A DNA stretch of 13,486 nt from a virus (taxonomy: Duplodnaviria; Heunggongvirae; Uroviricota; Caudoviricetes). This document shows, in pieces, positions 96-13,486 of this stretch. The first letter of the stretch is position 1. The number at the start of each line of letters is the position of its first letter. The notes beneath the pieces were generated by a model, which was given only the letters and a program-made list of their open reading frames with translations, was not told the DNA's origin and searched no databases. The DNA lies in IMG/VR virus record IMGVR_UViG_2534681899_000005; one strand, 5' to 3'. A program made the translations under genes and the position numbers.

Positions 96-343
96 AACAT
101 AAGTGTCGATAAAATCAACGGGTGTTGATCTGCATATTTCCCACACATGAGAGGAAATCAGAGCAAAGAGAGAGGAGAGAGGTTTGCTAGTCAAATTAAA
201 GGATACTCCCACACAAGACAGTCTCATACATCAGATTTGAAGGGTGCTTATCTTTCCCCAGACTTGGCCCTTGACCTGTTGGGATTTCCTACAACCCCTT
301 TCAGTCATACTCAGGCACCACACCCCGGTAAATATTACCGCAC

Positions 344-541
344 TAACCTGTAAAGAATTTTCACACCTGTGTGTTTATACAGTCATACTCTCCTGTTTTG
401 CAGTCATTGCACCCATGATACACAGCCCCTAACCTGTCAAAATATTTTACTACCCCACCAATAATACGGCCCATACCTGTAAAATATTTTTACTACTACC
501 TGTCAAAATCTTTTACTACTACCTGTAAAAATATTTGACAC
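344..541. repeat. Iteron array: five direct 22-24-bp repeats, three contiguous; candidate replication origin
   Basis: Copies at 344-366, 430-453, 474-496, 497-519 and 520-541 share the core ACCTGT[A/C]AAAAT(A/C)TTTTACTAC; AT-rich context. Confidence 0.7.
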
Positions 542-1109
542 TAATAGATAAAGTAATAGACCACACAATAAATCCCCCCTAACCCCCCCAGGGGGAATGG
601 GGAGGGATCAGAGAGTGGGGAAGGTTTTCTAAGGGAAAAGCTTAACCCACAAATGAAAGCCTAAAGAGCATTAGTGACTCTTTAGGCAATCTGTGTGTGG
701 GTCACTCTGTGACTTTAGCTATACAGCTAAACCGACTACATCGGCCTGTGTGTGGGGTGACAATGTATTCCATACATGACACGTCACCCAATTGTGTGTG
801 GTCCGGCGAATGCGTCAGCATGAGGCCCACATGTGGACCGCTGCCGAAAGCTTGCCAGCGCCGGAAGGAGGCAGCAAAGAGTCTCCCGCGCTCATGTGTG
901 GGCGTATACGTAAGATATACATTCATAAATCCAATTCTAGGCACCTAAATGGCCTTCTGGCTGCATTAACCTGTGTGAGTAGTGCAATTGCATTACCTGA
1001 CCTCTAAATCGCGTTAGAATCGATTTTAGAGCGCTTAAGGCAAAAAGTGCCCTCCCTCCCTTGTGGGCTTGCTTGTACCTATAGCACACCTAAATGATAA
1101 TAATTCTCA

Positions 1110-1138
1110 TTGACAATTGGTTGACAATATGATAAGAT
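1110..1138 (+). promoter_or_regulatory. Candidate sigma70 promoter (TTGACA-17-TAAGAT), with a second TTGACAAT copy at 1121
   Basis: -35 TTGACA at 1110-1115 and -10-like TAAGAT at 1133-1138; TTGACAAT is duplicated 11 bp downstream. Confidence 0.3.
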
Positions 1139-1173
1139 TATAAATAGGGGGAGAAACAGATCCGGAGGTCAAT

Positions 1174-1323
1174 GTGGAAATTACTGATGCAATAGCGATC
1201 ATCAACCTGGCTGTACTGTGGTGCGGTGTTGCCTACATAGCCGGAGTAACTGCAATCGACAATCTTGAAGAAAAAATGATAGATAAATACAAAAAGATTG
1301 TTGACAATTTGACGAATGTCTGA
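1174..1323 (+). CDS. Hypothetical small hydrophobic peptide (49 codons, GTG start)
   Basis: GGAGG at 1164-1168 lies 5 nt before GTG 1174. The translation VEITDAIAIINLAVLWCGVAYIAGVTAIDNLEEKMIDKYKKIVDNLTNV has one predicted TM helix and a charged tail. Below the ORF-track size cutoff and overlaps the downstream promoter. Confidence 0.2.
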   Translation: MEITDAIAIINLAVLWCGVAYIAGVTAIDNLEEKMIDKYKKIVDNLTNV

Positions 1324-1329
1324 TAAAAT
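1301..1329 (+). promoter_or_regulatory. Strong sigma70-type promoter for the rightward Rep operon (TTGACA-17-TAAAAT)
   Basis: -35 TTGACA at 1301-1306, 17-bp spacer, -10 TAAAAT at 1324-1329; 125 bp upstream of the first operon ATG; near-identical to the minus-strand promoter at 10859-10887. Confidence 0.55.
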
Positions 1330-1454
1330 ATAAAGCATAGGGTAATTCTCATCATAGTGAATTTCCTTTAGTAGACTGGCGGGGGCTTGTATTAAGTTCC
1401 CGTTTCTTTTTAACCGTATATCGCACAGGCGGTGAGCTGACAGGAGATTGAATC

Positions 1455-1664
1455 ATGGCTAAAACCGGACCGATAAGCCAGCTTGTAAACTGGACTACTG
1501 ACGAAATCGTCGAGAACGTGCTTAAAGGTAACTTTCGAAAAACTTCCGTTTATGCATTTATTCGTAAACACAAAGGAGAATATCCACACATTGAAGCGGC
1601 AATAGAAAAACTTAACTTTATCCGTATTGAGCGTGAGCTGGAAAGATATAAACATCTACTTTGA
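1455..1664 (+). CDS. Small (69 aa) putative DNA-binding regulator
   Basis: ATG preceded by AGGAGA RBS; stop overlaps the TTG at 1661 of the next gene; basic, with an HTH-like segment (TTDEIVENVLKGNFRKTSVYAFIRKH). Family not recognised. Confidence 0.5.
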   Translation: MAKTGPISQLVNWTTDEIVENVLKGNFRKTSVYAFIRKHKGEYPHIEAAIEKLNFIRIERELERYKHLL

Positions 1665-1684
1665 TAAATAATTGTGAGGGAATT

Positions 1685-2590
1685 ATGGCAAACAATAAAC
1701 TGGGGGCACATTTCACCCCAATTTTTAAACGTTTCATCAAGTATAATTTTGAAAATCCAATTGCAAAAACTACAACAGGCAAAGAGAGATTTAATTTAAA
1801 TGCGACGGAATTGATAATTTACGGGGAAATGGTTGGCTTTCATTTAAACGGCAACGAAATATTCATCTCGGAGCAGACCTTAGCAGATGATTGGGATTTT
1901 TCAAGACCAACGATTATTAAAGCTATTAAATCTCTAGTAAATGCTGGGATTATTTCTAAAGATAACCGGAAAGGCAAATCTAACATTTACAAACTGTTAA
2001 TTACACCTGAGCAGTTTGATAAAATGTGCGATGAGCAGGGTATTAAAACCTTAGACAGTGTGGGAGACAGCAAAGAGGCACCTGCTACACAGGCCCAAGA
2101 TAATCAACAGGAAGCCCCAAAAAAAGCCGCACAGCAAGCTAAAAAGGCTAAAGTAGTGCAATTGCCTACCCAAGACACTAAAGCGCCTCAAATTAACGCT
2201 GTTAGTGACAAGCCACGCCGGGGCCGTCCTGTGAAAGATGCAACAGATGGAGGCTGGATCGCCCTGGGTGAGAGTGAGGCTAAAGGCATAATGCGATCAC
2301 TGTGGGAAAGCAAATACAAAGATTTAAACAAACGTCGCCCGATCCTTTTGTCAAAGATTCAGGAGGATTTTTACACCGCAGAAGAGGTAAGCCAACATAA
2401 AGGGAAAAGAGAGGGTGAAATCTGGAAACCGGAAGAATACTGGCATTTAACCAGACCTGTGTTTATTTTTGCAAATAAGCTTATTGGGATGGGATTTGAA
2501 ATATTGTTAGATAAAACCTGCGGAGATTATCCCGAAATATTGTGGAGAAATGTTAGAAAAAATAAAAAAGGCATTTTAGAGTTTAAATAA
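1685..2590 (+). CDS. Putative replication initiator / replisome-organiser-like protein (winged helix plus AT-hook)
   Basis: ATG 1685 with GAGGGA RBS (the track uses in-frame TTG 1661). N-terminal winged-helix-like region (..FISEQTLADDWDFSRPTIIKAIKSLVNAGIISKD..), P/Q/A/K-rich linker with AT-hook KPRRGRPVK, C-terminal domain. Iteron array lies about 1.1 kb upstream. Confidence 0.45.
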   Translation: MANNKLGAHFTPIFKRFIKYNFENPIAKTTTGKERFNLNATELIIYGEMVGFHLNGNEIFISEQTLADDWDFSRPTIIKAIKSLVNAGIISKDNRKGKSNIYKLLITPEQFDKMCDEQGIKTLDSVGDSKEAPATQAQDNQQEAPKKAAQQAKKAKVVQLPTQDTKAPQINAVSDKPRRGRPVKDATDGGWIALGESEAKGIMRSLWESKYKDLNKRRPILLSKIQEDFYTAEEVSQHKGKREGEIWKPEEYWHLTRPVFIFANKLIGMGFEILLDKTCGDYPEILWRNVRKNKKGILEFK

Positions 2591-3961: not shown

Positions 3962-4351
3962 ATGCCTATGAATATTGAAGAAATGATAGTTGAATTCGAA
4001 GAGGGTGATTTCCTGGAGGATGGGGAGTTTAGTTACTCCCGTTTTAAACAGGCGTTATTTAGCAGCGAGGATAAACCACACGTTAGTGATCTTAACGACG
4101 ATGATTTATGTCGCTGGGTATGCACCCGCTTATATGAGGATGGAAAATATACAGGCCAAAACTTTCCAAATCTCTATTTCAAAGCACAAACATTTGAGGA
4201 AGGGCAAAGAGTGAAAAACCTGGTCGATAAAATGCTTTCAGCCGGATATTTGCATAAAGAATTATTAAATCCTAAAGCTGAAAGCAAGCGCCATTATATT
4301 TTTGTGTGGACTATTGGCGATAAGTGTCCACTAAGACGCAAAGGAAAATGA
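3962..4351 (+). CDS. Hypothetical acidic protein (129 aa; probable start ATG 3968)
   Basis: GAGAGGA RBS upstream; sits two genes before the tape-measure-like gene, so a tail-assembly-chaperone-like role is possible but unproven. Confidence 0.5.
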   Translation: MPMNIEEMIVEFEEGDFLEDGEFSYSRFKQALFSSEDKPHVSDLNDDDLCRWVCTRLYEDGKYTGQNFPNLYFKAQTFEEGQRVKNLVDKMLSAGYLHKELLNPKAESKRHYIFVWTIGDKCPLRRKGK

Positions 4352-4352
4352 T

Positions 4353-4589
4353 ATGAATACCTACGAAAAGATTTATCAAAAACTGGTTAAGGACTCCGAA
4401 GAGACGCACGAAGGGGTGACAGTAGGTCACCTGCCAGAGGCAGCGAAAGAGGGGGCCACCATTATTAAAAGTTGCTCCCACACAGAAGGCCTCTCAATCG
4501 AAGAGCTTGCGGAGAAATATAATATTGATAAAGAGGCCCTGAAAAGGGCTATTTCATTATCAAAATCTTTAAGACAGGGCGAGGTGTAA
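4353..4589 (+). CDS. Hypothetical protein (78 aa)
   Basis: ATG 1 nt after the preceding stop, AAGGA RBS; stop 3 nt before the tape-measure-like ATG, so tightly coupled. Confidence 0.5.
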   Translation: MNTYEKIYQKLVKDSEETHEGVTVGHLPEAAKEGATIIKSCSHTEGLSIEELAEKYNIDKEALKRAISLSKSLRQGEV

Positions 4590-4592
4590 GAG

Positions 4593-6719
4593 ATGGCAAT
4601 GAAGGAAGTCGCCAGACTAACAAACGTTATTTACTGGGATTCTGATAAATCCAGCTGGCGAAAAGAAGTTAAACGGCTTGAGGATTATAAAAAATCCTGG
4701 AAGAAAGCCACCGACGATATAGCTAAAGCGGATTTTAAATCGAATCAGGCTGTGCTCAGAACACAAAGAACACGCGCTAAGGTGGAAGAGCAGATTGCCA
4801 GAGCACAGAAGAAACAACGTGCTCAGGCTGTCAGCCGTCTGACCGGGGGCAATAATCCGGAGCTCTCCTCTATGCGCAAGTTCTACCAACAACAAGCCAG
4901 AGAAGCCGCCAGACAACAAAAACTGTTAGATCGTAGTGTTGGAGATGTTCAGCACAGAAAAGCACGTGTAGGGGCCAACAGTGCACGAATCAGCAGCATG
5001 TTTGATGGCTCCCTGGTTGCTCAGTTCCAATCCAGAATTCAGAGAGTTAATGCTGATTATGCTAAAGGGGCTATTAACCTGCAGACCTATAATCAGAAAA
5101 TGGCCCGACTCAGAGCTGAAATGAAGATGGCAACAGCAGAGGCCGGAAAATTTCAGAGCAGACTAGACAAAGCTGCGGTAGCAGGATCTAAGCTGCATGA
5201 CAACCTGGGGAAACTCAACTCCACACTTGGCAAGATAGCTATTGGCCTTACTGCCGCTGGCTGGGGTGTTCAGCGTGCTGTTAGTGGTGCTATGGGTAGC
5301 CTTGCAGATCGCAACAGTGCCTACTTCGGTTTGATGGCACAGAACAAGGATGATAAAGCCAAGACTGATCAGCAGATGGCTTTTATCAAGAACACAGCCT
5401 ACACCTACGGGATGGATGAGCGGGAGATGCAAGGTGGCTACATGCGCTTTGCTGCAGCTACCCCCACCATGAAGGAATCTGATAAGCAGGCTCTTTTTGA
5501 GGCTATGGCTATTAAAGGTCGCTCAGTGGGTGCTACTGGCGAGCAACAGAACAGGGCGCTTGTTGCGGTCCAACAAATGGCTTCAAAGGGAAAAGTTATG
5601 GCAGAAGAGCTGCGGGGCCAACTGTCAGAAGCCTTTGCAGGCTCACAACAGGATTTTCAACAGGCCGCTATTGATGCCGGAATCATCAAGAATGCCCAGG
5701 AATTCGATAAAGCCCTTAAAGATGGCAAAATCACCCTGGATAAGCTTCTCCCTTCTTTGGTGAAAATCTGGGGTGCTGCAAAAGAAACTAAAGCTTTTGC
5801 TGAATCCATGAAACAGCCAGAAGTAGCAATGCAGCGCATGAAAAACAGCTTTAACGAGCTGGCGATCCAGTTTATGGGTGTTGTAGATCCTGCAGATGGC
5901 GTTATTAGCTTATCTGAATCTCTGATCTCCATCTTCGAAGACCTCACTACTGATATGGACGGCAGCGGGAGCGCGGCAAAACAGTTTGGTGAGGCAGTCG
6001 GTGCTGCCATGCGGGAGATCATGTATTGGGTAGGCTTCGCTAAGGGATATATTGAGGTCAAGGCTAAAGAGTTCGGCATGACCGGATCAGAGGTTGGCGA
6101 GCTTATCGGGAAACTGGTAGTCGGCTTAGCTGGTCTGAAAGTTATTACCACACTGCTTTCCCCTCTAACCGGATTTGTTTCACTTGTCACCCAACTGATT
6201 TCTCTGATAGGCAAGATTCCAGGTCTGGGCAATCTCGTTAAGGGTGCAGGTGGTGCAGTCGCTGGAAGCCCAACAACAGCATTAGCCGCTGGCAGTGCCG
6301 CAGGTGTGGGTGTTGGTGTCGCTGGCGCACTGGGCGCTAAGACGGTAGGTGAGAAGTTCAGAGGATGGATGCAAAGCAAGGCTGATCAGTTCGGGGAGTG
6401 GGCTAAATCTAAAGGCCTGCTTAGCGATGAACAGGACGCTATGACCAAACCGGGGGCCTATAACCATAGCTACATCAACAAGGGAGCTTCTTTTAATCCA
6501 TATCCAACCATTAGCCCATCACGTCCTACTCCTAGCACTGGTACGGCTATTCAGAATGGTGGCTATCAACCTGCTCAGGTTAATGTGGTGCCTCAAGGTG
6601 AGATTTCCGGCAAATGGGAGATAACCATCGATGAGGGGGGAATTGCCAGGGTGATTCAGAAGGAAGTCAGCGATCAGTTGGATTGGAAAGCCACACAGGA
6701 ATCTAATCAGCTTTTCTAA
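4593..6719 (+). CDS. Phage tail tape-measure-like protein (708 aa)
   Basis: GAGGTG RBS then ATG 4593. N-terminal about 200 aa is Q/R/A/K-rich and coiled-coil-like; central ..GATGEQQNRALVAVQQMASKGKVMAEELRGQLSEAFAG.. resembles the conserved tape-measure core; C-terminal Gly/Ala-rich hydrophobic segments; no Walker A or catalytic motif seen. Confidence 0.6.
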   Translation: MAMKEVARLTNVIYWDSDKSSWRKEVKRLEDYKKSWKKATDDIAKADFKSNQAVLRTQRTRAKVEEQIARAQKKQRAQAVSRLTGGNNPELSSMRKFYQQQAREAARQQKLLDRSVGDVQHRKARVGANSARISSMFDGSLVAQFQSRIQRVNADYAKGAINLQTYNQKMARLRAEMKMATAEAGKFQSRLDKAAVAGSKLHDNLGKLNSTLGKIAIGLTAAGWGVQRAVSGAMGSLADRNSAYFGLMAQNKDDKAKTDQQMAFIKNTAYTYGMDEREMQGGYMRFAAATPTMKESDKQALFEAMAIKGRSVGATGEQQNRALVAVQQMASKGKVMAEELRGQLSEAFAGSQQDFQQAAIDAGIIKNAQEFDKALKDGKITLDKLLPSLVKIWGAAKETKAFAESMKQPEVAMQRMKNSFNELAIQFMGVVDPADGVISLSESLISIFEDLTTDMDGSGSAAKQFGEAVGAAMREIMYWVGFAKGYIEVKAKEFGMTGSEVGELIGKLVVGLAGLKVITTLLSPLTGFVSLVTQLISLIGKIPGLGNLVKGAGGAVAGSPTTALAAGSAAGVGVGVAGALGAKTVGEKFRGWMQSKADQFGEWAKSKGLLSDEQDAMTKPGAYNHSYINKGASFNPYPTISPSRPTPSTGTAIQNGGYQPAQVNVVPQGEISGKWEITIDEGGIARVIQKEVSDQLDWKATQESNQLF

Positions 6720-6792
6720 TGCTGGAAGATAGCGCAGCTTTACTGATATTGTGATCAAAATCAATAAGTTAGCCCGACCGGATAAACTCCAG

Positions 6793-6828
6793 GCAAGAAA
6801 AAAGCCCCTAAGTGTTAACAAAGGGGCT
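6793..6828 (-). terminator. Intrinsic terminator, clearest on the minus strand (possibly bidirectional)
   Basis: Stem AGCCCCT (6803-6809) / AGGGGCT (6822-6828) with a 12-nt loop. On the minus strand it is followed by TTTTTTCTT (complement of 6793-6802); on the plus strand only by CTCTTCTCC. Confidence 0.5.
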
Positions 6829-6849
6829 CTTCTCCGGTATCCTTTTGAT

Positions 6850-6964
6850 GCGGGGCGAACCTGCTAACAAAAATCAACCTCTCGCGAGACTAATGTTAGC
6901 AGGTTGCCGGAAGGTAAGTCAACTCCGGCCTATAAACCTTAAAGCGACTATAAAATCGCCCCGC
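6850..6964. other. Highly structured element with nested perfect inverted repeats (candidate structured RNA or protein-binding site)
   Basis: 9-bp outer stem GCGGGGCGA (6850-6858) / TCGCCCCGC (6956-6964) encloses a 10-bp stem CCTGCTAACA (6860-6869) / TGTTAGCAGG (6895-6904), whose loop holds the palindrome TCTCGCGAGA, plus hairpin GCCGGA / TCCGGC (6906-6929). Confidence 0.4.
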
Positions 6965-7246
6965 CAATTGTGATGATCCGACCTTTGAGGCGGGTCCGGT
7001 GCCCAGGGGGTGCAGTGATGCACAAACCAGGCAACGATAAACAGGCTAACAGTGATAGCGGCGCTCAATCAGCGCACTAAATCCTAACCAGTCCGGGAAA
7101 GAGGCTGGCTCTATCGACCGCTCATGCACGGGACAATGCATACCTGATAAAGGATTCTCACAAGGGACCAATCGCGAGAAAAGAAGTGGAAAGGGGCTGA
7201 TTTGTGGTGTATCACTACGGCCTCAAAAGAACACTATTGTCTTTTT

Positions 7247-7705
7247 TCAGCCTCTCCCCACATTTGACCAGTATTTGATTGCACCGATCAAATCATCATA
7301 GTGGCGCATTGCATCATTGAAGCCTTTATAGCTTGCCCATTGTGGGGAAACCTTGTTATTGCTGAATTGCCCACTAATCAGGATAGTCTCCAAAATGTCG
7401 GCGTATCGCTTGCCAATTCGCTTTCTGACGGCCTCAGAGCTCCCACCCTTTACGATTGCATTAATCAGGGCTTTTGTGTGTCTCAGGCTCTCATAGAGCA
7501 TTGCAGCGTGGGCAGATTCCATAAAGGAGCGCTTAGGCAGATCACCCCACCCCTCAGAATGAATTGCTGCCAGTGTGGCGTAATTCAGGCCGCTATAGTG
7601 TTTCCCGTCATCCCAGCCAACCGCTACACCTTCCATCTGTGAGAGCTCTTTATGCAGCTTATCCATCATGCGCTTGTCTATGGTGCAACGGACTTTCGGA
7701 CTCAT
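7247..7705 (-). CDS. Phage virion morphogenesis / head-tail joining protein (HK97 gp10 / Mu G-like), 152 aa
   Basis: Start overlaps the upstream stop by ATGA (7702-7705); motif ..NYATLAAIHSEGWGDLPKRSFMES.. resembles the Y-A-x-H-x-x-G...P-x-R-x-F signature of this family, recalled from memory. Confidence 0.4.
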   Translation of the reverse strand: MSPKVRCTIDKRMMDKLHKELSQMEGVAVGWDDGKHYSGLNYATLAAIHSEGWGDLPKRSFMESAHAAMLYESLRHTKALINAIVKGGSSEAVRKRIGKRYADILETILISGQFSNNKVSPQWASYKGFNDAMRHYDDLIGAIKYWSNVGRG

Positions 7706-8514
7706 TTGTTGATCTCCGTGATGTCATCGAGCAACATGTTGGCCTTATCAATCATCGTTTCGTGGAACTCATTCGACACAACAGACTTATCACCTGCGGC
7801 AATCTTTCCCGCTGCCTCTCCCTGTGCATATTCCCCGCGATGCTTAGCCCTGGTTGATTTCGTAGCAGCGTTGCCAGCGTTGCTACCCTCTTTAGCACTG
7901 TTAACAGCGCCCTTTTGCTGTGTTTTATTCACCTTCTTACTGTTAGTGAAAACTCCGGCATTTTCGACCATCTTCACCTTGAAGGTGCGGAATTCTTCAA
8001 AAGTGCAATCAATAGTGATGCAGTCACCAGAGGAAGAGCTACGCTTAACTTCACATTTCGTCATGATGAAGTTCTCAAGGAGTCCGGCATCTTCACTTAC
8101 CAGGCTAACTAGCTGGCGCTTGTCTCTCATTTCCATAAGTGCCTGAACAGCGGCAGCAGGGCGCATAGATTCACGGGGATTATCTGGATCAGTGTTCCGG
8201 TCGATGTAGTTCTCTTTCCGGATGATATGAGGGGAAGAGGTAATAATGCCCGTAAAGCTGACAGATTTATCTTTAATGACGGCATGGTCTGACATGGTGG
8301 TGCCATCCTCGACCGCATAGCTCGATTTCTCGACAGGGAACGAATAGCTGACATCAGAGATTGAGTCAAAGAAGATAGCCACGTTATCGGTATAGTTGAA
8401 GCCATCCATTATATTTTTGTTTTGTGAATATCCCCCACACATAACAGTGAATGCAGGAGATCTCGATTCAGCTTGTTTTGCAGCTGTCAGAGCATCACTA
8501 GCCATATTAAACAT
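7702..8514 (-). CDS. Hypothetical protein, possibly phage structural (270 aa)
   Basis: Long ORF in the capsid operon, translationally coupled to the next gene; C-terminal half is low-complexity K/A/G/N-rich; no family recognised. Confidence 0.45.
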   Translation of the reverse strand: MFNMASDALTAAKQAESRSPAFTVMCGGYSQNKNIMDGFNYTDNVAIFFDSISDVSYSFPVEKSSYAVEDGTTMSDHAVIKDKSVSFTGIITSSPHIIRKENYIDRNTDPDNPRESMRPAAAVQALMEMRDKRQLVSLVSEDAGLLENFIMTKCEVKRSSSSGDCITIDCTFEEFRTFKVKMVENAGVFTNSKKVNKTQQKGAVNSAKEGSNAGNAATKSTRAKHRGEYAQGEAAGKIAAGDKSVVSNEFHETMIDKANMLLDDITEINK

Positions 8515-8610: not shown

Positions 8611-8862
8611 TTATTTTGCAAAACGATTATGCGCATTCAGGGCTTTTTTGCGGTCCTGGGCTTGTTTGCGTGCAATAAAATGTTCGAAAGTCTCGGCCCA
8701 GGTGCATTTATTATATTCACGGTATTTATGCATAGCCTGGCGGCTAACGTCATAGCAGGCGGCAAATGTGGAGATACGCAGGAATTCCGGCAGATCCTCG
8801 TCATCGATATGGATAATATCAAAAGGCACGTCGTCACGGTCGCCGTATAAAACAATTTTCAT
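8611..8862 (-). CDS. Hypothetical small protein (83 aa from ATG; track ORF extends to GTG at 8871)
   Basis: GAGGTG RBS 6 nt before the ATG (complement of 8860-8862); acidic N-terminus, basic C-terminus with a possible HTH (FAACYDVSRQAMHKYRE). Confidence 0.4.
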   Translation of the reverse strand: MKIVLYGDRDDVPFDIIHIDDEDLPEFLRISTFAACYDVSRQAMHKYREYNKCTWAETFEHFIARKQAQDRKKALNAHNRFAK

Positions 8863-8975
8863 AAAAGACACCTCAAAAACTTAAGACGGGGATAATAAAA
8901 AAGGGAAGAGGGAAAGACCTATCCCCGATCTCTCACCTCTTCCCTTTGCTTTTATTTGGCCTTCGAAGAAGGACC

Positions 8976-10022
8976 TTATTTAGCCTTGGCTTTTGCCAGA
9001 GCAGCGGCGGCGGAGTTACTAACACTCACTTTAACCACAACTTCAGGCATCATGTTCATGAAAGCATAAGAGGATTCAATGAAGATTTCTCGTTTACCTC
9101 TGGACTCTTCCATATACATGAAAGCTTCACGTGCAGCGCCGTTTGCAAGCTTCAGGTTGCGAGCGCAAGGGCCGAAAAATTGAGTATAAACGCCCACCAT
9201 ATCGCCTAACGCATGCGGCTGGAACTGTGGGACCAGATAAGCAGTATTCTCTGGCAGACTATCCATTTGCACCACACGCAGAGCTAAGCCTGGAATGCGG
9301 AAAGTCGGGAAGCCCGGCAGAATATCCTCAGGGAACATCAGACCTTTATCGGTAATATTCTGATTGCCGAACAACAGCACTTTTCGCAACAGTTCATCAG
9401 TCTGAATTGCAGCAAAGAGTTCAGCACGGCAGAACAGGGTGAAACCACGCAGAGCACGAACGACACCACGCTGTTTAACCTTGCTCAGTGCAACCAGGTC
9501 CTGCAGTTGTTTGAGGATGTCTTGAGCTAGATCCACTTCAGAGGTGGACTGTTCCACGCCCAGCAGTTCGCACACATTCAGTTCTTTACCCTTGGTGAGG
9601 ATAATTTTGTTCTCAAAGAGAGCAAGCTGGCGTGCTTCTTCGTGGGTCTGGCGTAAGCCTTCACCCAACTGAATAACACGACGAGCGGTTACAGACTCTA
9701 AATTCTCTTCGGAATCTTTGCCCGGAACACGGATACCTTGCCAGTCAGAAGGATAAATAGCACTTGATGCGGCAGTGAATGCCATATCACCCGTGCCCGT
9801 TTCACGCTCATCTGCGGTAATGGTAGCCATCTGTTCACCGTAGCGCGGATACTGACCGAAAGCGGATTGTTTCACCTGGCGAACTTTGTCATATTCAAAT
9901 TTAAAGGTATTGCACAGAGCAGTAGTGTTGAAGATATCCATTGCTGAAATAATCTGGTTATCCAGCGGGATATCTTTAATCAGACCACACAGATCGCGAA
10001 CTTCGAATTCTTTCTTAGCCAT
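8976..10022 (-). CDS. Putative major capsid protein, lambda gpE-like (348 aa)
   Basis: ATG (complement of 10020-10022) with AAGGAGG RBS 6 nt upstream; the track ORF starts at in-frame TTG. Size and C-terminal segment (..KREIFIESSYAFMNMMPEVVVKV..) resemble lambda E-family capsid proteins as recalled; follows a ~110-aa gene as in lambda D-E. Not searched. Confidence 0.45.
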   Translation of the reverse strand: MAKKEFEVRDLCGLIKDIPLDNQIISAMDIFNTTALCNTFKFEYDKVRQVKQSAFGQYPRYGEQMATITADERETGTGDMAFTAASSAIYPSDWQGIRVPGKDSEENLESVTARRVIQLGEGLRQTHEEARQLALFENKIILTKGKELNVCELLGVEQSTSEVDLAQDILKQLQDLVALSKVKQRGVVRALRGFTLFCRAELFAAIQTDELLRKVLLFGNQNITDKGLMFPEDILPGFPTFRIPGLALRVVQMDSLPENTAYLVPQFQPHALGDMVGVYTQFFGPCARNLKLANGAAREAFMYMEESRGKREIFIESSYAFMNMMPEVVVKVSVSNSAAAALAKAKAK

Positions 10023-10033
10023 TTTCAACCTCC

Positions 10034-10369
10034 TTATTGTGCAACACGCAAATCGCCATTGCTGGCAGCAATAACAGCGGCTAAGCCGTCTTTATCCACG
10101 TAGGCCGGATTGATATAACAGCCCTTGTTGGCAACAACGATAAAAGCGTCGCCAACTTCAGCACGTTCTACAACCAGCAGCGGAGTTTTATCTGTGTGCG
10201 TTGCTTTAACGAAGGTCTCAACCTCGCCAGCCTCAGTTACCACAACAACAGTGCCAGCCGGAATCTCAGCTTTAACTTTGTTTTTAATTTCAACGTCGCG
10301 AATACTAAATTGCTCATCTGCGGCGTATGAAATGATGTGTCCGCGTGTGCGGATAGTCATATCTTTCAT
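10034..10369 (-). CDS. Putative head decoration protein, lambda gpD-like (111 aa)
   Basis: AGGTGA RBS then ATG (complement of 10367-10369); beta-rich small protein directly upstream of the capsid candidate; first gene after the promoter. Confidence 0.35.
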   Translation of the reverse strand: MKDMTIRTRGHIISYAADEQFSIRDVEIKNKVKAEIPAGTVVVVTEAGEVETFVKATHTDKTPLLVVERAEVGDAFIVVANKGCYINPAYVDKDGLAAVIAASNGDLRVAQ

Positions 10370-10667
10370 TTGATCACCTGCGATTTAAATTAACTCCCCT
10401 CAAAGAGTTCCGGTATAACCTCTCAAACCACGACAGGCTCGGGCCGAAAAGTTATGCCGGAAATCTAAAGGGAAATTGATACAAGGAGAGGGAGATAGCC
10501 CCGCACCGTCCAAGCGGGGGCTATTCCACATGGGGAAACCGACAACAGTCGGATGATAGTTCACAGTATGATTACGGTTACTAGAGAGCACTATCACGAA
10601 AGGCACTCCCCCGGATCAGTTCAGGCTGCGGTCACATCAGCGGGGAAATACCTTTCGGGATAGCTAC

Positions 10668-10701
10668 CCACACAGAAAACCCGCAAAAGAAAACTGTGTG
10701 G
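10668..10701. promoter_or_regulatory. Inverted repeat CCACACAG-N18-CTGTGTGG in the capsid-operon leader
   Basis: Perfect 8-bp arms at 10668-10675 and 10694-10701; lies in the roughly 480-nt leader between promoter and decoration gene; overlaps TGTGGATAA. Confidence 0.35.
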
Positions 10702-10850
10702 ATAACTAGCCCAATAGGAGAATTAATCGACCACTCAACGATGATCAGGGTAGTGTTATTTATAAGGCGGCACCGCTACCTGGTCGCCTTTACTTTGGAG
10801 GAAAATACGGCAAATCAAGATCTTCTCAAATGATATTGATTCCATACTAT

Positions 10851-10870
10851 ACTGTATATTATATCAGTAT
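10851..10870. promoter_or_regulatory. LexA-box-like palindrome (SOS operator candidate)
   Basis: Minus strand reads TACTGATATAATATACAGTA, which keeps CTG-N10-CAG with an AT-rich spacer (consensus TACTGTATATATATACAGTA); overlaps the -10 of the capsid-operon promoter. Confidence 0.5.
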
Positions 10871-10887
10871 TCTCTCAAATTGTCAAC
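10859..10887 (-). promoter_or_regulatory. Consensus sigma70 promoter for the leftward capsid operon (TTGACA-17-TATAAT)
   Basis: Minus strand reads gtgTTGACAatttgagagaatactgaTATAATat: -35 at 10882-10887, -10 at 10859-10864, exact 17-bp spacer. Confidence 0.6.
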
Positions 10888-11193
10888 ACCCTGATTATAT
10901 AAATTCTAATAATTAGCGTGGTAACTGTATTTTCAGACCTCTATCAATCCCATCAATACGTCACCCCACCCTTTAGATGCATACATCCGACCTACTTTGT
11001 AGGCTTGGCGTACTGCCAAGGTCGCAGCTATGCGACTCCTATCTATCACCACTTTATAAAGCTTGATAGATATCTTTTGATCAATATCAATGTTTTCCAG
11101 GGATTTACCCGGCTATAGTTCGAATCAAGGAAGGGGAGCATTGATAGCACCCAACCGAGCAAACAAATCAACTTCTCGCAAAAGGTGATAGTT

Positions 11194-11316
11194 ATGGGTA
11201 TCAAGAACAGTGCCAGCGCATGGCAAAAGGCCAGGTTTCATCACCCACACATTGTTAAGGCAATTGAGGTGGTTGGAGTTTTAGCCCTGATGTTAGCTCT
11301 GTGTGTGGAGGTGTGA
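11194..11316 (+). CDS. Hypothetical small hydrophobic peptide (40 aa)
   Basis: AAGGTGA RBS 6 nt before the ATG; translation MGIKNSASAWQKARFHHPHIVKAIEVVGVLALMLALCVEV has a C-terminal TM-like segment; its leader shares a 15-nt motif with the 173-aa gene leader. Confidence 0.25.
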   Translation: MGIKNSASAWQKARFHHPHIVKAIEVVGVLALMLALCVEV

Positions 11317-11380
11317 GATAGGCAAAGGAGGCAAAGCATTTTTTAATAGGTCTGGCAGTCTTAGATTTTGTATTAATCAT

Positions 11381-11423
11381 CATTGAGCGGAGTTTATGAA
11401 CAGCATTGAGAGGAGTTTATGAC
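11381..11423 (+). repeat. Tandem duplication of a translation-initiation region, with an 8-codon upstream ORF coupled by ATGA
   Basis: CATTGAGCGGAGTTTATGAA (11381-11400) is followed by a near-identical second copy (11404-11423, CATTGAGAGGAGTTTATGAC); mini-ORF 11396-11422 (MNSIERSL) stops at TGA overlapping the main ATG at 11419. Confidence 0.45.
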
Positions 11424-11679
11424 GGGGGCTAAAGATATCAGGAGACTGAGGGAAGAGCTGATAGCTGAAATTAAAGCTAAGGCAAAGCAAATGGAGATAG
11501 CCGCACAAATGGATGTAGCGGAACAGATGTACAAGATGGTTGAAGAGGGAACACCACGACAGGTTATCGCTAAAACCTTCGGTGTGGGGATCGCCACCGT
11601 GCACAGAAGGCTGAAAGCCTATGCCGACTACCACAATATCGAGAGAAAGGAGGATGGGAGATTTAAGAAGAATAAATAG
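11419..11679 (+). CDS. Small HTH DNA-binding protein (resolvase/Fis-type HTH), 86 aa
   Basis: GAGAGGAG RBS; coiled-coil-like N-terminus; C-terminal GTPRQVIAKTFGVGIATVHRRLKAY matches the Hin/resolvase-type HTH pattern; no recombinase catalytic domain. Confidence 0.5.
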   Translation: MTGAKDIRRLREELIAEIKAKAKQMEIAAQMDVAEQMYKMVEEGTPRQVIAKTFGVGIATVHRRLKAYADYHNIERKEDGRFKKNK

Positions 11680-11736
11680 TAGGAACAGTCCAACAGGTTA
11701 TTAACTAAATTCAACTTCTCGCAAAGGGGTACCATT

Positions 11737-12258
11737 ATGTTATTTCAGAAAGATAAAGAATCAGTAAATAAAAGGCTTTTTAAAGAACTGGTAAAAATGT
11801 TCTTTCAGTACACTGCAGCGTTTTTGATAGCCGGGCCTTGGTTAATGGCTATCTGTTTTTACCCTGCTACCTTGTTTATTGGCAGTAGCAAGTTCGGCGA
11901 TGGCCCGTTTCATGTGGATATTGGTTTTATAGATTCTCTCCTGATCCGTCCTATAAATGCTGTTCTCAATGCTTTCTACTTCCCCACTAGTCTAGAGGGG
12001 TGGGCGGTAACCTGGGGTGTTTTAGGCTTAGCATATGTATATTGGTTGGTTGGCTTTTTGTGGGGTGCAATCTGTGCTCTCCTCGATATTGATACAGGAT
12101 CAAGCCGTAGGAGTGGTGGTAATAATAGCGGAGCGGGTGTATATGCACATGTAGGCACCAGGGGAGCTAGTGTTACCGCAGGTACCCGATTCGCTGGCGG
12201 CTGGCTGAGCATAGGCAAACGCGGCGTTAGTTGGAGAAAAAGCAAAAAACTGTTCTGA
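11737..12258 (+). CDS. Hypothetical membrane protein (173 aa, 2-3 predicted TM helices)
   Basis: ATG 11737 with a leader containing TCAACTTCTCGCAAA; hydrophobic segments (AAFLIAGPWLMAICFYPATLFIG; GWAVTWGVLGLAYVYWLVGFLWGAICALL); Gly/Ser/Arg-rich tail; followed by a terminator. Confidence 0.5.
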   Translation: MLFQKDKESVNKRLFKELVKMFFQYTAAFLIAGPWLMAICFYPATLFIGSSKFGDGPFHVDIGFIDSLLIRPINAVLNAFYFPTSLEGWAVTWGVLGLAYVYWLVGFLWGAICALLDIDTGSSRRSGGNNSGAGVYAHVGTRGASVTAGTRFAGGWLSIGKRGVSWRKSKKLF

Positions 12259-12265
12259 CCTACCA

Positions 12266-12292
12266 GGGGGGCCATCACGGCCCCTTTTTATT
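12266..12292 (+). terminator. Rho-independent terminator
   Basis: GC stem GGGGCC / GGCCCC with loop ATCAC, followed by TTTTTATTTAT; 8 nt after the stop at 12258. Confidence 0.75.
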
Positions 12293-12366
12293 TATCCCTT
12301 ATTTACACTCCTTTCAGTCCTGATCATCACTCCCTACGGTAATGAGCAATTAACCCCTATTTAAGG

Positions 12367-12408
12367 GGTATTTAATGGGTATTTAATGCCTATTTATTGA
12401 TTTAATCC
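12367..12408. repeat. 11-bp tandem repeats (GGTATTTAATG x2 plus degenerate copies)
   Basis: GGTATTTAATG at 12367-12377 and 12378-12388, then CCTATTTATTG and ATTTAATCC; preceded by CCCCTATTTAAGGGG; related palindrome GGTATTAATACC at 12871-12882. Confidence 0.5.
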
Positions 12409-13099
12409 GTTTTATGCCACAACCGCCCGGTTGACAGAGTAAGAGAGAGGGTGTAACCCTTTTTCGTAAAACCAATAAAATCAATAGCTTAGCTCAATTG
12501 GCCTTTTCTCTGTTTTTGTCAAATTTAACATGCCCTCAAAAACTGCAAAATCTGGCTGCAAGATTATCTGCAGCTGGATTTCTTACACCTCAATTTGTGG
12601 TATCACCCTGACTAGTTTGTGCATAAAATGAACAGTTTTTAACATTTCCTATTCACCTGGTAACCACACAAAAAGCTAAAAACGAGGCACAGATAATCTT
12701 AGAGGCCTGTTTTCTTGTTATCACTCTGGGAACGTCGTAGAAGTGATTTTGATGAAAGACGGCCTACCCTATTACACCCCCATTTTTTGTTATCACAATT
12801 GCATCCTGTGCGGTATATGACTATGTGCTGAAAGCGGTCTCAGGTGTGGGTGTCAGAAATATCCATTAGCGGTATTAATACCCGTCAGATGTTCGTCTGA
12901 GGTGCCAGGCAGGCGCTCCCCTACCTCCCCTTTTTCTTCTAACAATTCTCAAATATCACACCACTGCCCACCACGTTGCTATTATGTTAATTCTTAAGCT
13001 TTGCTTTATGTTGTGCACATTATTTATTCAGGTGCGTGTACGTAAATTCTGGGCCTCCTTATCACGATTTTTAAATCAGATTTTGTAGTGCGCTTTATT

Positions 13100-13127
13100 A
13101 GTGTAGATAAGATCTATTATGTTAAAT
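13100..13127 (+). promoter_or_regulatory. Candidate Xer recombination site (dif/psi-like)
   Basis: AGTGTAGATAA-GATCTA-TTATGTTAAAT: right arm is identical to the E. coli dif XerD arm as recalled; 6-bp centre resembles pSC101 psi (GATCCA); left arm is degenerate versus GGTGCGCATAA (5 of 11). Confidence 0.35.
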
Positions 13128-13391
13128 GCAATTTTCCCAACCCTTCAAATCAATGACTTACATGTAAGCATGCACTAACACCCCACACAGCACATTAGAC
13201 GTGTAGATGTCCATATCCCACATTTTTGATTGTTTTGTAGTCATTCCCCTGATCATTTAACCAGTATAGTTTGTTCTCTGCAGACCACAAAATCGGAATT
13301 TACATCTGATTAACATAATCTGTTAGCATGATCACCATTACCCACACAACAATAACCCCATGCAAGCCTCTTCAGGCAATTTATCGGCGTG

Positions 13392-13486
13392 TTGGTGTGA
13401 ACAGTCTTTCATGTTCTTTATGTATCAGTTGTCCTGTGTGGTGATTTGGTGGACTGCCCCAGGGGCCATACTTATGATGCCCGGTC
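13392..13486. repeat. Right copy of 95-bp terminal direct repeat
   Basis: Exact match to 1-95 on the same strand. Confidence 0.9.

Follow-up and report, generated by a model that had tools for sequence, protein, structure and literature searches.

What can a capsid gene build when it stands apart from every other gene of a head-building module? This question is raised by positions 8976-10369 of a 13,486-nucleotide stretch of DNA (IMG/VR record IMGVR_UViG_2534681899_000005; 'the window' denotes this whole stretch), in which a first-pass annotation recognized a lambda D-E-like pair of decoration and capsid genes. The pair was described as the first thing transcribed from the strongest promoter in the window and as preceded by no portal, protease, scaffold or terminase, and co-assembly with, or size redirection of, the capsid of a helper phage was suggested. 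In the computational analysis presented here, the pair appears, on balance, to be the head-shell module of a plasmid-borne satellite that exploits virulent myoviruses of the rV5 type, and mobilisation of the plasmid by such a helper is predicted. The element looks like an undescribed parasite ('satellite') of these large phages.

The region consists of two adjacent minus-strand open reading frames (ORFs), one running from 10369 to 10034 (111 amino acids, ATG start) and the next from 10028 or 10022 to 8976. The latter most likely starts at the ATG at 10022 (348 amino acids), because an AAGGAGG ribosome-binding site precedes this codon; 348 amino acids is also the length of the commonest database cluster of this capsid protein (P0001, 441 member sequences), and the gap between the 111-amino-acid gene and the start of the capsid gene is 11 nt. 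The pair is a self-contained operon with a promoter, a 482-nt leader, two genes and a terminator, as follows.

10858..10886, minus strand: promoter P_L, perfect sigma-70 consensus with an extended -10 element (TTGACA-17-TGnTATAAT), the sole 12/12 match in the window
10370..10851, minus strand: untranslated leader of 482 nt between P_L and the 111-amino-acid gene
10034..10369, minus strand: decoration-protein candidate, 111 amino acids, putative remote homologue of the beta-tulip decoration protein (DEC) of Vequintavirinae (profile-profile comparison and position)
8976..10022, minus strand: predicted major capsid protein, HK97 fold, lambda-E class, 348 amino acids (phrog_29, profile comparison, AlphaFold2 model and Foldseek)
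8892..8955, minus strand: intrinsic terminator hairpin with T-run at the end of the two-gene operon (20-nt arms, 85% complementary; terminator-like site at 8926-8910)

Judged from profiles and a predicted structure, the 348-amino-acid protein is an HK97-fold major capsid protein of the lambda-E class (PF03864), for which assembly into a shell is predicted. It is matched by phrog_29 ('major head protein') with E = 3e-21; by itself it had no Pfam match, and 24 of 27 aligned relatives matched PF03864 (Phage_cap_E; best E = 1.4e-58). An exhaustive HMMER search of 1.84 billion representatives returned only 29 relatives; none was found in GTDB representative genomes, and metagenomes yielded near-identical copies only. 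The profile built with the relatives matched solved capsid proteins with E = 1e-48 to 1e-30 (9zbi, Phi92_gp124, PhiTE 9cul, Bas63 9ncf, ICP1 8g1r and Sf14 9c2d). Furthermore, the AlphaFold2 (AF2) model, with a predicted local distance difference test score (pLDDT) of 82.8 and a predicted template modelling score of 0.81, was placed by Foldseek with the capsid proteins of PhiTE, ICP1, Bas63 and Sf14, followed by those of lambda (gpE) and HK97, with E from 4e-20 (PhiTE) to 1e-9; encapsulins were among the distant matches. The fold check that the first-pass annotation had proposed thus came out in favour of a capsid protein, and the contrary scenario that it had named, a tail sheath and tube pair, is ruled out because the fold is that of HK97.

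The window is a complete circular iteron plasmid of Escherichia coli of about 13.4 kb. Its 95-nt ends (1-95 and 13392-13486) are identical and represent the overlap of a circular assembly, so that the true circle measures 13,391 bp, and five E. coli plasmids of 13.2-13.7 kb in PLSDB, classed as 'non-mobilizable', match it end to end. Of 5426 complete E. coli genomes, seven carry the gene pair, in each case on a plasmid of this kind and in no case on the chromosome. Only three ORFs exceed 300 amino acids, namely those for the replication initiator Rep (309), a tape measure protein (708) and the capsid protein, and about 30% of the replicon is devoid of any ORF of at least 60 amino acids. Two features seen in the sequence suggest how the plasmid would be kept.

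1661..2590, plus strand: replication initiator (Rep), 309 amino acids, with HTH_36, DnaD_N and phage-O-like domains (Pfam, PHROG)
432..542, plus strand: four 22-nt iterons (ACCTGTCAAAATATTTTACTAC), a direct repeat family and putative plasmid origin

Direct searches with the 111-amino-acid protein (Pfam, PHROG, NCBIfam, PADLOC, PDB sequences and tblastn against phages) gave no usable match, and weak matches to Bactofilin, phrog_29936 and a homing endonuclease were treated as noise. The HDPD model (PF02924, lambda gpD) had no match even at E <= 10 in any of eight orthologues, and the counterpart in a true phage relative (L037) had merely a faint precomputed HDPD match. Close homologues are confined to the same plasmids. 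Every distant relative of the capsid gene is directly preceded by an ORF of 107-121 amino acids that aligns with the 111-amino-acid protein; in rV5-like phages the same position is occupied by the 'head decoration protein'. This rV5-type protein matches the solved DEC of PhiTE (9cul_e, E = 9.5e-14), which has the beta-tulip fold and sits as a trimer on a T=13 capsid (PMC11972413).

Profile-profile comparison (hhalign) of 11 satellite proteins with nine Vequintavirinae DECs gave P = 3e-6 in global mode (probability 75%, 98 columns, score 33.3) and P = 5.7e-5 in local mode (score 31.9), compared with scores of 12.9 local and 3.2 global for a reversed template and maxima of 18.7 local and 9.4 global for 100 column-shuffled templates. 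Significance was reached only after orthologues from distant elements and more phage decoration proteins had been added, and not with few sequences. Among 38 structural proteins of the rV5-like phage MaxTheCat, the decoration protein was the best match; BLAST found no match between satellite and phage decoration proteins, which align at about 24% at the profile level. Beta-rich and with a short helix at the C-terminus, the 111-amino-acid sequence would suit a beta-tulip but is not diagnostic of one, and AF2 run on six near-identical sequences reached a pLDDT of 38.6, from which no fold is claimed. Homology of the 111-amino-acid protein to the Vequintavirinae decoration protein is considered likely from these profiles, and its function would be capsid decoration. 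Of the proposed lambda D-E-like pair, the capsid member therefore stands as an HK97-fold protein of the lambda-E class, while the decoration member is drawn from profile comparison and position only and the gpD-like fold was not obtained.

The statement that the pair follows the strongest promoter was borne out by the sole 12/12 sigma-70 consensus in the window, with a structured leader of about 480 nt lying in between. P_L lies about 490 nt upstream of the first ATG (that of the 111-amino-acid gene), and its hexamers and spacing are kept in all plasmid variants. The leader RNA folds with -174 kcal/mol (z = -6.05 versus shuffles), and its part 10601-10800 is 99% identical among six plasmids, while synonymous sites differ by 10-30%. 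No Rfam family was found in the leader (10370-10851); its role is probably regulatory, with an attenuator, an antiterminator and a non-coding RNA as candidates. P_L is one of three paralogous promoter cassettes with GTTGACAATnTGA, at 1119-1160 (+), 1299-1340 (+) and 10847-10900 (-), also placed at 1119(+), 1299(+) and 10888(-). Two 54-nt cassettes, 1287-1340 and 10847-10900, have 74% identity and point outwards to the two gene blocks, and these shared cassettes suggest joint control of the 'replication/tape-measure' and 'capsid/tail' operons.

The pair is part of a larger set of virion proteins encoded by the satellite, which also includes a tape measure protein, a tube initiator and a neck protein; this had been overlooked in the first-pass annotation. 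The corresponding features are listed here, together with two ORFs in the usual place of tail-assembly chaperones.

7702..8514, minus strand: tail tube initiator (Dit-like), 270 amino acids (PF21821, E = 2e-25; phrog_5197, E = 2e-107)
7247..7705, minus strand: neck or tail-completion-like protein, 152 amino acids (phrog_222, E = 8e-29)
4593..6719, plus strand: tape measure protein, 708 amino acids (PF20155; phrog_5255, E = 1e-193)
3962..4589, plus strand: two small ORFs of 129 and 78 amino acids upstream of the tape measure gene, in the usual tail-assembly chaperone place (position only)

The tube initiator is 51% identical to the 'tail tube initiator' of MaxTheCat and matches that of PhiTE (9cuy_K, E = 1e-34). 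The neck protein is 45% identical to MaxTheCat bas57_0011, the gene of which sits between the capsid and sheath genes, and no solved PhiTE counterpart was found for it. The best phage matches of the tape measure protein are rV5-like tape measure proteins (26%), and it matches PhiTE 9cuy_W with E = 1e-20. In relatives, the place upstream of the tape measure gene is occupied by a PF26210 (Phage_phiTE_211) protein; the 129- and 78-amino-acid proteins of the window had no family match.

None of the window ORFs matched a portal, protease, scaffold, terminase, sheath, tube, baseplate or fibre family (Pfam, PHROG and further family searches). Because all of these are missing, the plasmid cannot make a virion alone. 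An autonomous mini-phage is ruled out by the lack of a portal and a terminase, and the complete phage that a phage-plasmid must encode is not there: the 13.4 kb hold only five virion genes. The pair is thus orphaned on the entire replicon and not just in the region upstream of it, as had been noted before. An element that is unable to build its own head must use a helper, and the suggested reliance on one gains strength from the whole 13.4-kb plasmid being devoid of portal, protease, scaffold and terminase genes, from a concrete candidate helper lineage and from the retention of the module in distant elements.

Which phage could serve as the helper? The plasmid has diverged homologues of five virion proteins of rV5-like phages (capsid, decoration, tape measure, tube initiator and neck proteins); the two capsid proteins, that of the plasmid and that of MaxTheCat, are 24.6% identical. 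In tblastn searches of 50,697 phage records, Vequintavirinae gave the best or the only matches. In addition, a non-coding element links the plasmid to the same phages.

771..891 (core 831-891), plus strand: hairpin, non-coding element common to the plasmid and Vequintavirus genomes (DNA match to phages)

The 61-nt core is 85-87% identical to about 120 phage records, nearly all of them rV5-like Vequintavirus (E = 7e-11), and the phage copy lies in an unannotated intergenic gap of about 510 nt after a gene annotated 'replication initiation protein'. In an alignment of six plasmids and five phages, the loop of 24 nt shows no variation, and 100% of cells in the 6-bp stem are paired. Three pairs of the stem are changed on both sides (GCUGCC/GGCAGC in plasmids versus ACCGAC/GUCGGU in phages), compared with none in slid controls; they count as one set of events because there is a single split between plasmids and phages. 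These features argue for a functional hairpin common to plasmid and phage, and a packaging site, an origin or a regulatory RNA may be speculated upon as its role. Of the DNA segments compared with phages, only 1-1460 gave the Vequintavirus element; 10370-13486 and 6700-7260 had no meaningful match. Taken together, the five virion-protein homologues and the common non-coding element make the rV5-like Vequintavirus the candidate helper lineage.

The measurable genes of the plasmid are under strong purifying selection. Across seven plasmid variants, the ratio of nonsynonymous to synonymous substitution rates (dN/dS) was 0.084 for the 111-amino-acid gene, 0.057 for the capsid gene, 0.046 for an 86-amino-acid ORF that follows it, 0.011 for the tube initiator and 0.013 for the neck gene. 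Both genes of the pair are intact in five to seven plasmid variants; with this and dN/dS values of 0.06-0.08, the pair is not a product of chance.

The genomic context was examined for 14 distant relatives of the capsid protein, which are 18-43% identical to it. Thirteen of them, all outside the phage clade, keep a core composed of an ORF of about 110 amino acids, the capsid gene and an ORF of 53-90 amino acids. To this core a tape measure protein and a protein of the Phage_phiTE_211 family are usually added, and sometimes a Dit and a neck protein. A portal or terminase was found in none of these 13 satellite-type relatives. The remaining relative, P0045, falls among the capsid proteins of phages in a rough neighbour-joining (NJ) tree, and it lies within a complete tail module of a phage. 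In this rough tree, the satellite-type capsid proteins thus appear to be a separate and diverse group. Some relatives are contigs of about 13 kb or less (L004, L005, L009, L010 and L011), and others are chromosomal islands adjoining integrases, for example in Serratia nevei (L015, L017, L019, L030, L038 and L039).

The small ORF that completes the core is represented in the window by one further gene.

8611..8871, minus strand: small protein of 86 amino acids with a helix-turn-helix-like stretch, after the capsid gene (dN/dS 0.046)

An ORF of 53-90 amino acids follows the capsid gene in every relative (L004, L005, L009, L010, L011, L015, L017, L019, L030, L038 and L039). The 86-amino-acid protein had no family match in Pfam, PHROG, PADLOC and further family searches, and it might be a packaging-specificity or regulatory protein.

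Two side observations concern these relatives. The islands L030, L039 and L019 share a chromosomal neighbourhood with a pseudouridine synthase, a CobA/CobO-like gene and a short-chain dehydrogenase, to which the flanks of L030 and L039 add a peptidase S49, topoisomerase I and a LysR regulator; this common neighbourhood suggests a preferred integration site. The 13.25-kb relative L004 encodes a DUF4062 protein at 219-1190 (-). According to the title of a 2026 preprint, DUF4062 is an anti-phage defence family, so that elements of this family may carry defence cargo.

On the satellite reading, the following course of events is envisaged. The plasmid would be maintained by Rep and its iterons. Upon infection by a phage of the Vequintavirus type, the 111/348-amino-acid operon would be transcribed from P_L, with the structured leader probably gating expression. 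The satellite capsid protein would then polymerise on the helper portal with the scaffold and protease of the helper, giving a shell sized for 13.4 kb rather than the T=13 head that holds the 136 kb of the helper, and the 111-amino-acid protein, as a beta-tulip trimer, would cement this shell. If the T=13 head of PhiTE, which holds 142 kb, is simply scaled by volume, 13.4 kb would correspond to about T=3 to T=4, which is an arithmetic estimate only. The helper terminase would load plasmid DNA into the shell, possibly, if speculatively, via the common hairpin, and the head would join a tail built by the helper around an inner axis (tape measure and tube initiator) and a neck encoded by the satellite. 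Size redirection of the capsid, as first suggested, may thus be only part of what the element does.

A wider form of this reading is held more tentatively, as something close to an even call. The element would be the founding example of a new class of satellites, comprising plasmids and integrative islands across Enterobacterales, that parasitise virulent Vequintavirinae by means of chimeric virions. Shell, cement, tape measure, tube initiator and neck would be their own, portal, terminase, sheath, tube, baseplate and fibres would come from the helper, and the hairpin, copied from or common with the helper, would act in cis as a packaging or replication signal.

Several points weigh against the satellite reading. 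Mobilisation, helper identity and capsid size were all deduced from sequence, and no relatives of the element were found in IMG/VR viral contigs, which gives no sign of encapsidated copies. Identities between the virion homologues and any sequenced phage reach only 25-51%, and the true helper could therefore be a relative not yet sequenced. Homology of the decoration protein is weak (hhalign probability 66-75%), and the sole structure prediction for this protein failed (pLDDT 38.6). Furthermore, the hairpin is missing from the most divergent plasmid variant, CP134895.1 (L027), which has unrelated sequence in its place (about 10967-11100) and may have adapted to another helper. From a consensus sigma-70 promoter, expression would be expected even in the absence of a helper, unless a still hypothetical repressor and operator keep it silent. 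Finally, the reading offers no reason for a satellite to encode a tape measure, a tube initiator and a neck protein itself.

The best-surviving, if unlikely, alternative is a defence by poison subunits. The plasmid would then be mainly an anti-phage element, with all five diverged virion proteins (capsid, decoration, tape measure, tube initiator and neck) entering the assemblies of an infecting rV5-like phage and spoiling its virions, the plasmid itself staying unpackaged. For each structural gene of the plasmid, the helper has a diverged paralogous part that must fit into a multi-protein assembly, and the strong promoter before the capsid genes looks constitutive. Known satellites such as P4, the Staphylococcus aureus pathogenicity islands (SaPIs) and the phage-inducible chromosomal island-like elements (PLEs) also interfere with their helpers, so the two readings overlap. 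However, five separate decoys would be expensive, no known defence system or family was detected in the window with PADLOC, and integrated relatives carry integrases typical of mobile islands. The tight replicon size (13.2-13.7 kb) and the cis element shared with phages also fit packaging better.

Somewhat less probable again is the co-assembly variant of the first-pass suggestion, in which the plasmid capsid protein, instead of building a small head of its own, takes up places in the capsids of the helper (pentons or particular hexons, for instance) and alters their geometry or stability. Although the two capsid proteins belong to the same fold class and the plasmid has no recognisable scaffold or size-determining protein, an identity of about 25% makes precise quasi-equivalent mixing less likely. 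The matching decoration protein that the plasmid brings suggests a self-consistent shell surface, and the satellite capsid proteins group apart from those of phages in the rough NJ tree.

It is very improbable that the pair forms a compartment lacking a portal, such as an encapsulin-like closed shell or a particle like a gene-transfer agent unrelated to any helper phage. HK97-fold proteins can form shells of this kind, and encapsulins did appear at a distance in the Foldseek search; however, phage capsid proteins rather than encapsulins gave the best matches in structure and sequence, neither cargo nor a partner of the encapsulin type was found, the hairpin points to Vequintavirus, and only a tailed particle gives a meaning to the tape measure, tube initiator and neck genes conserved alongside. 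Weakest of all, and already largely refuted, is decay, whether of a phage-plasmid or of a captured phage fragment now devoid of function: the gene set is fragmentary and nearly a third of the replicon has no sizeable ORF, but dN/dS is 0.01-0.08, no variant has a broken gene, conservation of non-coding stretches reaches 99%, the same module recurs in relatives with capsid proteins only 18-43% identical, and the capsid protein cluster has 441 members, so that purifying selection and deep conservation also rule out a decayed prophage fragment.

Some further observations concern the replicon. About 2.6 kb across the circle junction (1-1450 and 12260-13486) contain no convincing ORF and yet are mostly 90-98% conserved among the plasmids, which is unusually much non-coding sequence in a replicon of 13 kb. 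Where the tape-measure and neck genes converge, they leave a gap of 527 nt (6720-7246) that is 99% conserved among the plasmids, is strongly structured on the minus strand (z = -5.3) and has a bidirectional terminator-like hairpin near 6790-6830; no phage match was found for it, and Rfam gave only a sub-threshold match to a counter-transcribed RNA (ctRNA). Rfam and tRNA scans of the window gave nothing above noise. A 173-amino-acid protein encoded at 11737-12258 (+), with hydrophobic segments, a glycine-rich tail and no family match, has the highest dN/dS of the plasmid (0.21) and might be a membrane, exclusion or lysis-related cargo protein. The record L002 (NZ_CP043822.1, 39,610 bp) is a head-to-tail trimer of a 13.2-kb unit in which indels differ per copy and some capsid genes are truncated; it is either an artefact of long-read assembly or a real multimer of about 40 kb.

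No account of this plasmid family or of any Vequintavirinae satellite was found in the searchable literature, the coverage of which is incomplete, so that an earlier description is possible. If the satellite reading is correct, the element would join the PLE-ICP1 system of Vibrio as a second case in which the satellite of a virulent phage is amenable to experiment, with E. coli as the host and, as candidate helpers, rV5-like phages that are widely isolated and considered for therapy. The movement of 'non-mobilizable' plasmids by phage hijacking was listed as an open question in a 2025 review, and a clear example of it would be provided. A new division of labour would also emerge, in which the satellite brings the shell and the inner tail axis and not the portal or the packaging motor, and with it the question of how a foreign capsid protein uses the portal, scaffold and protease of another phage to make a head about ten times smaller. 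In practical terms, strains that carry such plasmids or islands could respond less well to Vequintavirus therapy phages, and DNA could be spread between strains during treatment.

The gene order is shared with the head module of the Vequintavirinae themselves (rV5 and PhiTE), in which a decoration gene is likewise followed by a capsid gene of the same families; the PhiTE capsid protein, too, is an HK97-fold protein of the lambda-E class. However, the phage pair follows terminase, portal, protease and scaffold genes and builds a T=13 head for about 136-142 kb, whereas the plasmid pair stands alone with its own promoter and leader. Among satellites, the only plasmid shown to be one is pDolos, according to the same 2025 review. 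The likeness to pDolos lies in a plasmid acting as a phage satellite, in that case of an inovirus; it is a rolling-circle plasmid, is packaged by a filamentous phage, has no capsid protein and is unrelated to the present element in sequence and mechanism.

P4 can likewise persist as a plasmid, has about 11-13 kb and a decoration protein (Psu), and takes portal, terminase and tail from its helper P2. It uses the helper capsid protein, redirected by Sid, and has no capsid, tape measure or tube initiator gene, and its helper is temperate. No Pfam or PHROG family corresponding to the P4 markers Psu, Sid, Delta, Ash/Eps and alpha primase-helicase was matched by any window ORF.

The cf-PICIs of Enterobacterales (capsid-forming members of the phage-inducible chromosomal islands) resemble the element in having their own HK97-fold capsid protein and capsids and in obtaining other virion parts from a helper. 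They carry a full head and packaging module (portal, protease, head-tail connectors and small terminase), take only tails, are integrated and are induced by temperate helpers. In contrast, the present element has no portal, protease, connector set or terminase, adds a tape measure and a tube initiator, is a plasmid and has virulent 136-kb myoviruses as its apparent helpers. The combination that defines cf-PICIs (head module, small terminase and integrase) was not found in the window; the distant relatives have the integrase and lack portal and terminase.

PLEs are integrated and excise on infection, whereas this element is a plasmid. The likeness to PLE and its helper ICP1 lies in a virulent myovirus helper of about 125-140 kb with a capsid protein of the lambda-E-like group (the ICP1 coat, 8g1r, was among the top matches), and in a satellite of about one-tenth of the helper genome for which small capsids are expected. 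PLE has no capsid protein of its own, and the ICP1 coat is reshaped by the external scaffold TcaP (title of PDB entry 8g1r), whereas the element described here brings both capsid and decoration proteins. The element would thus be most like the cf-PICIs in owning a capsid protein and most like PLE in having a virulent helper that is about ten times larger and of the same capsid-protein class, while being a member of neither group.

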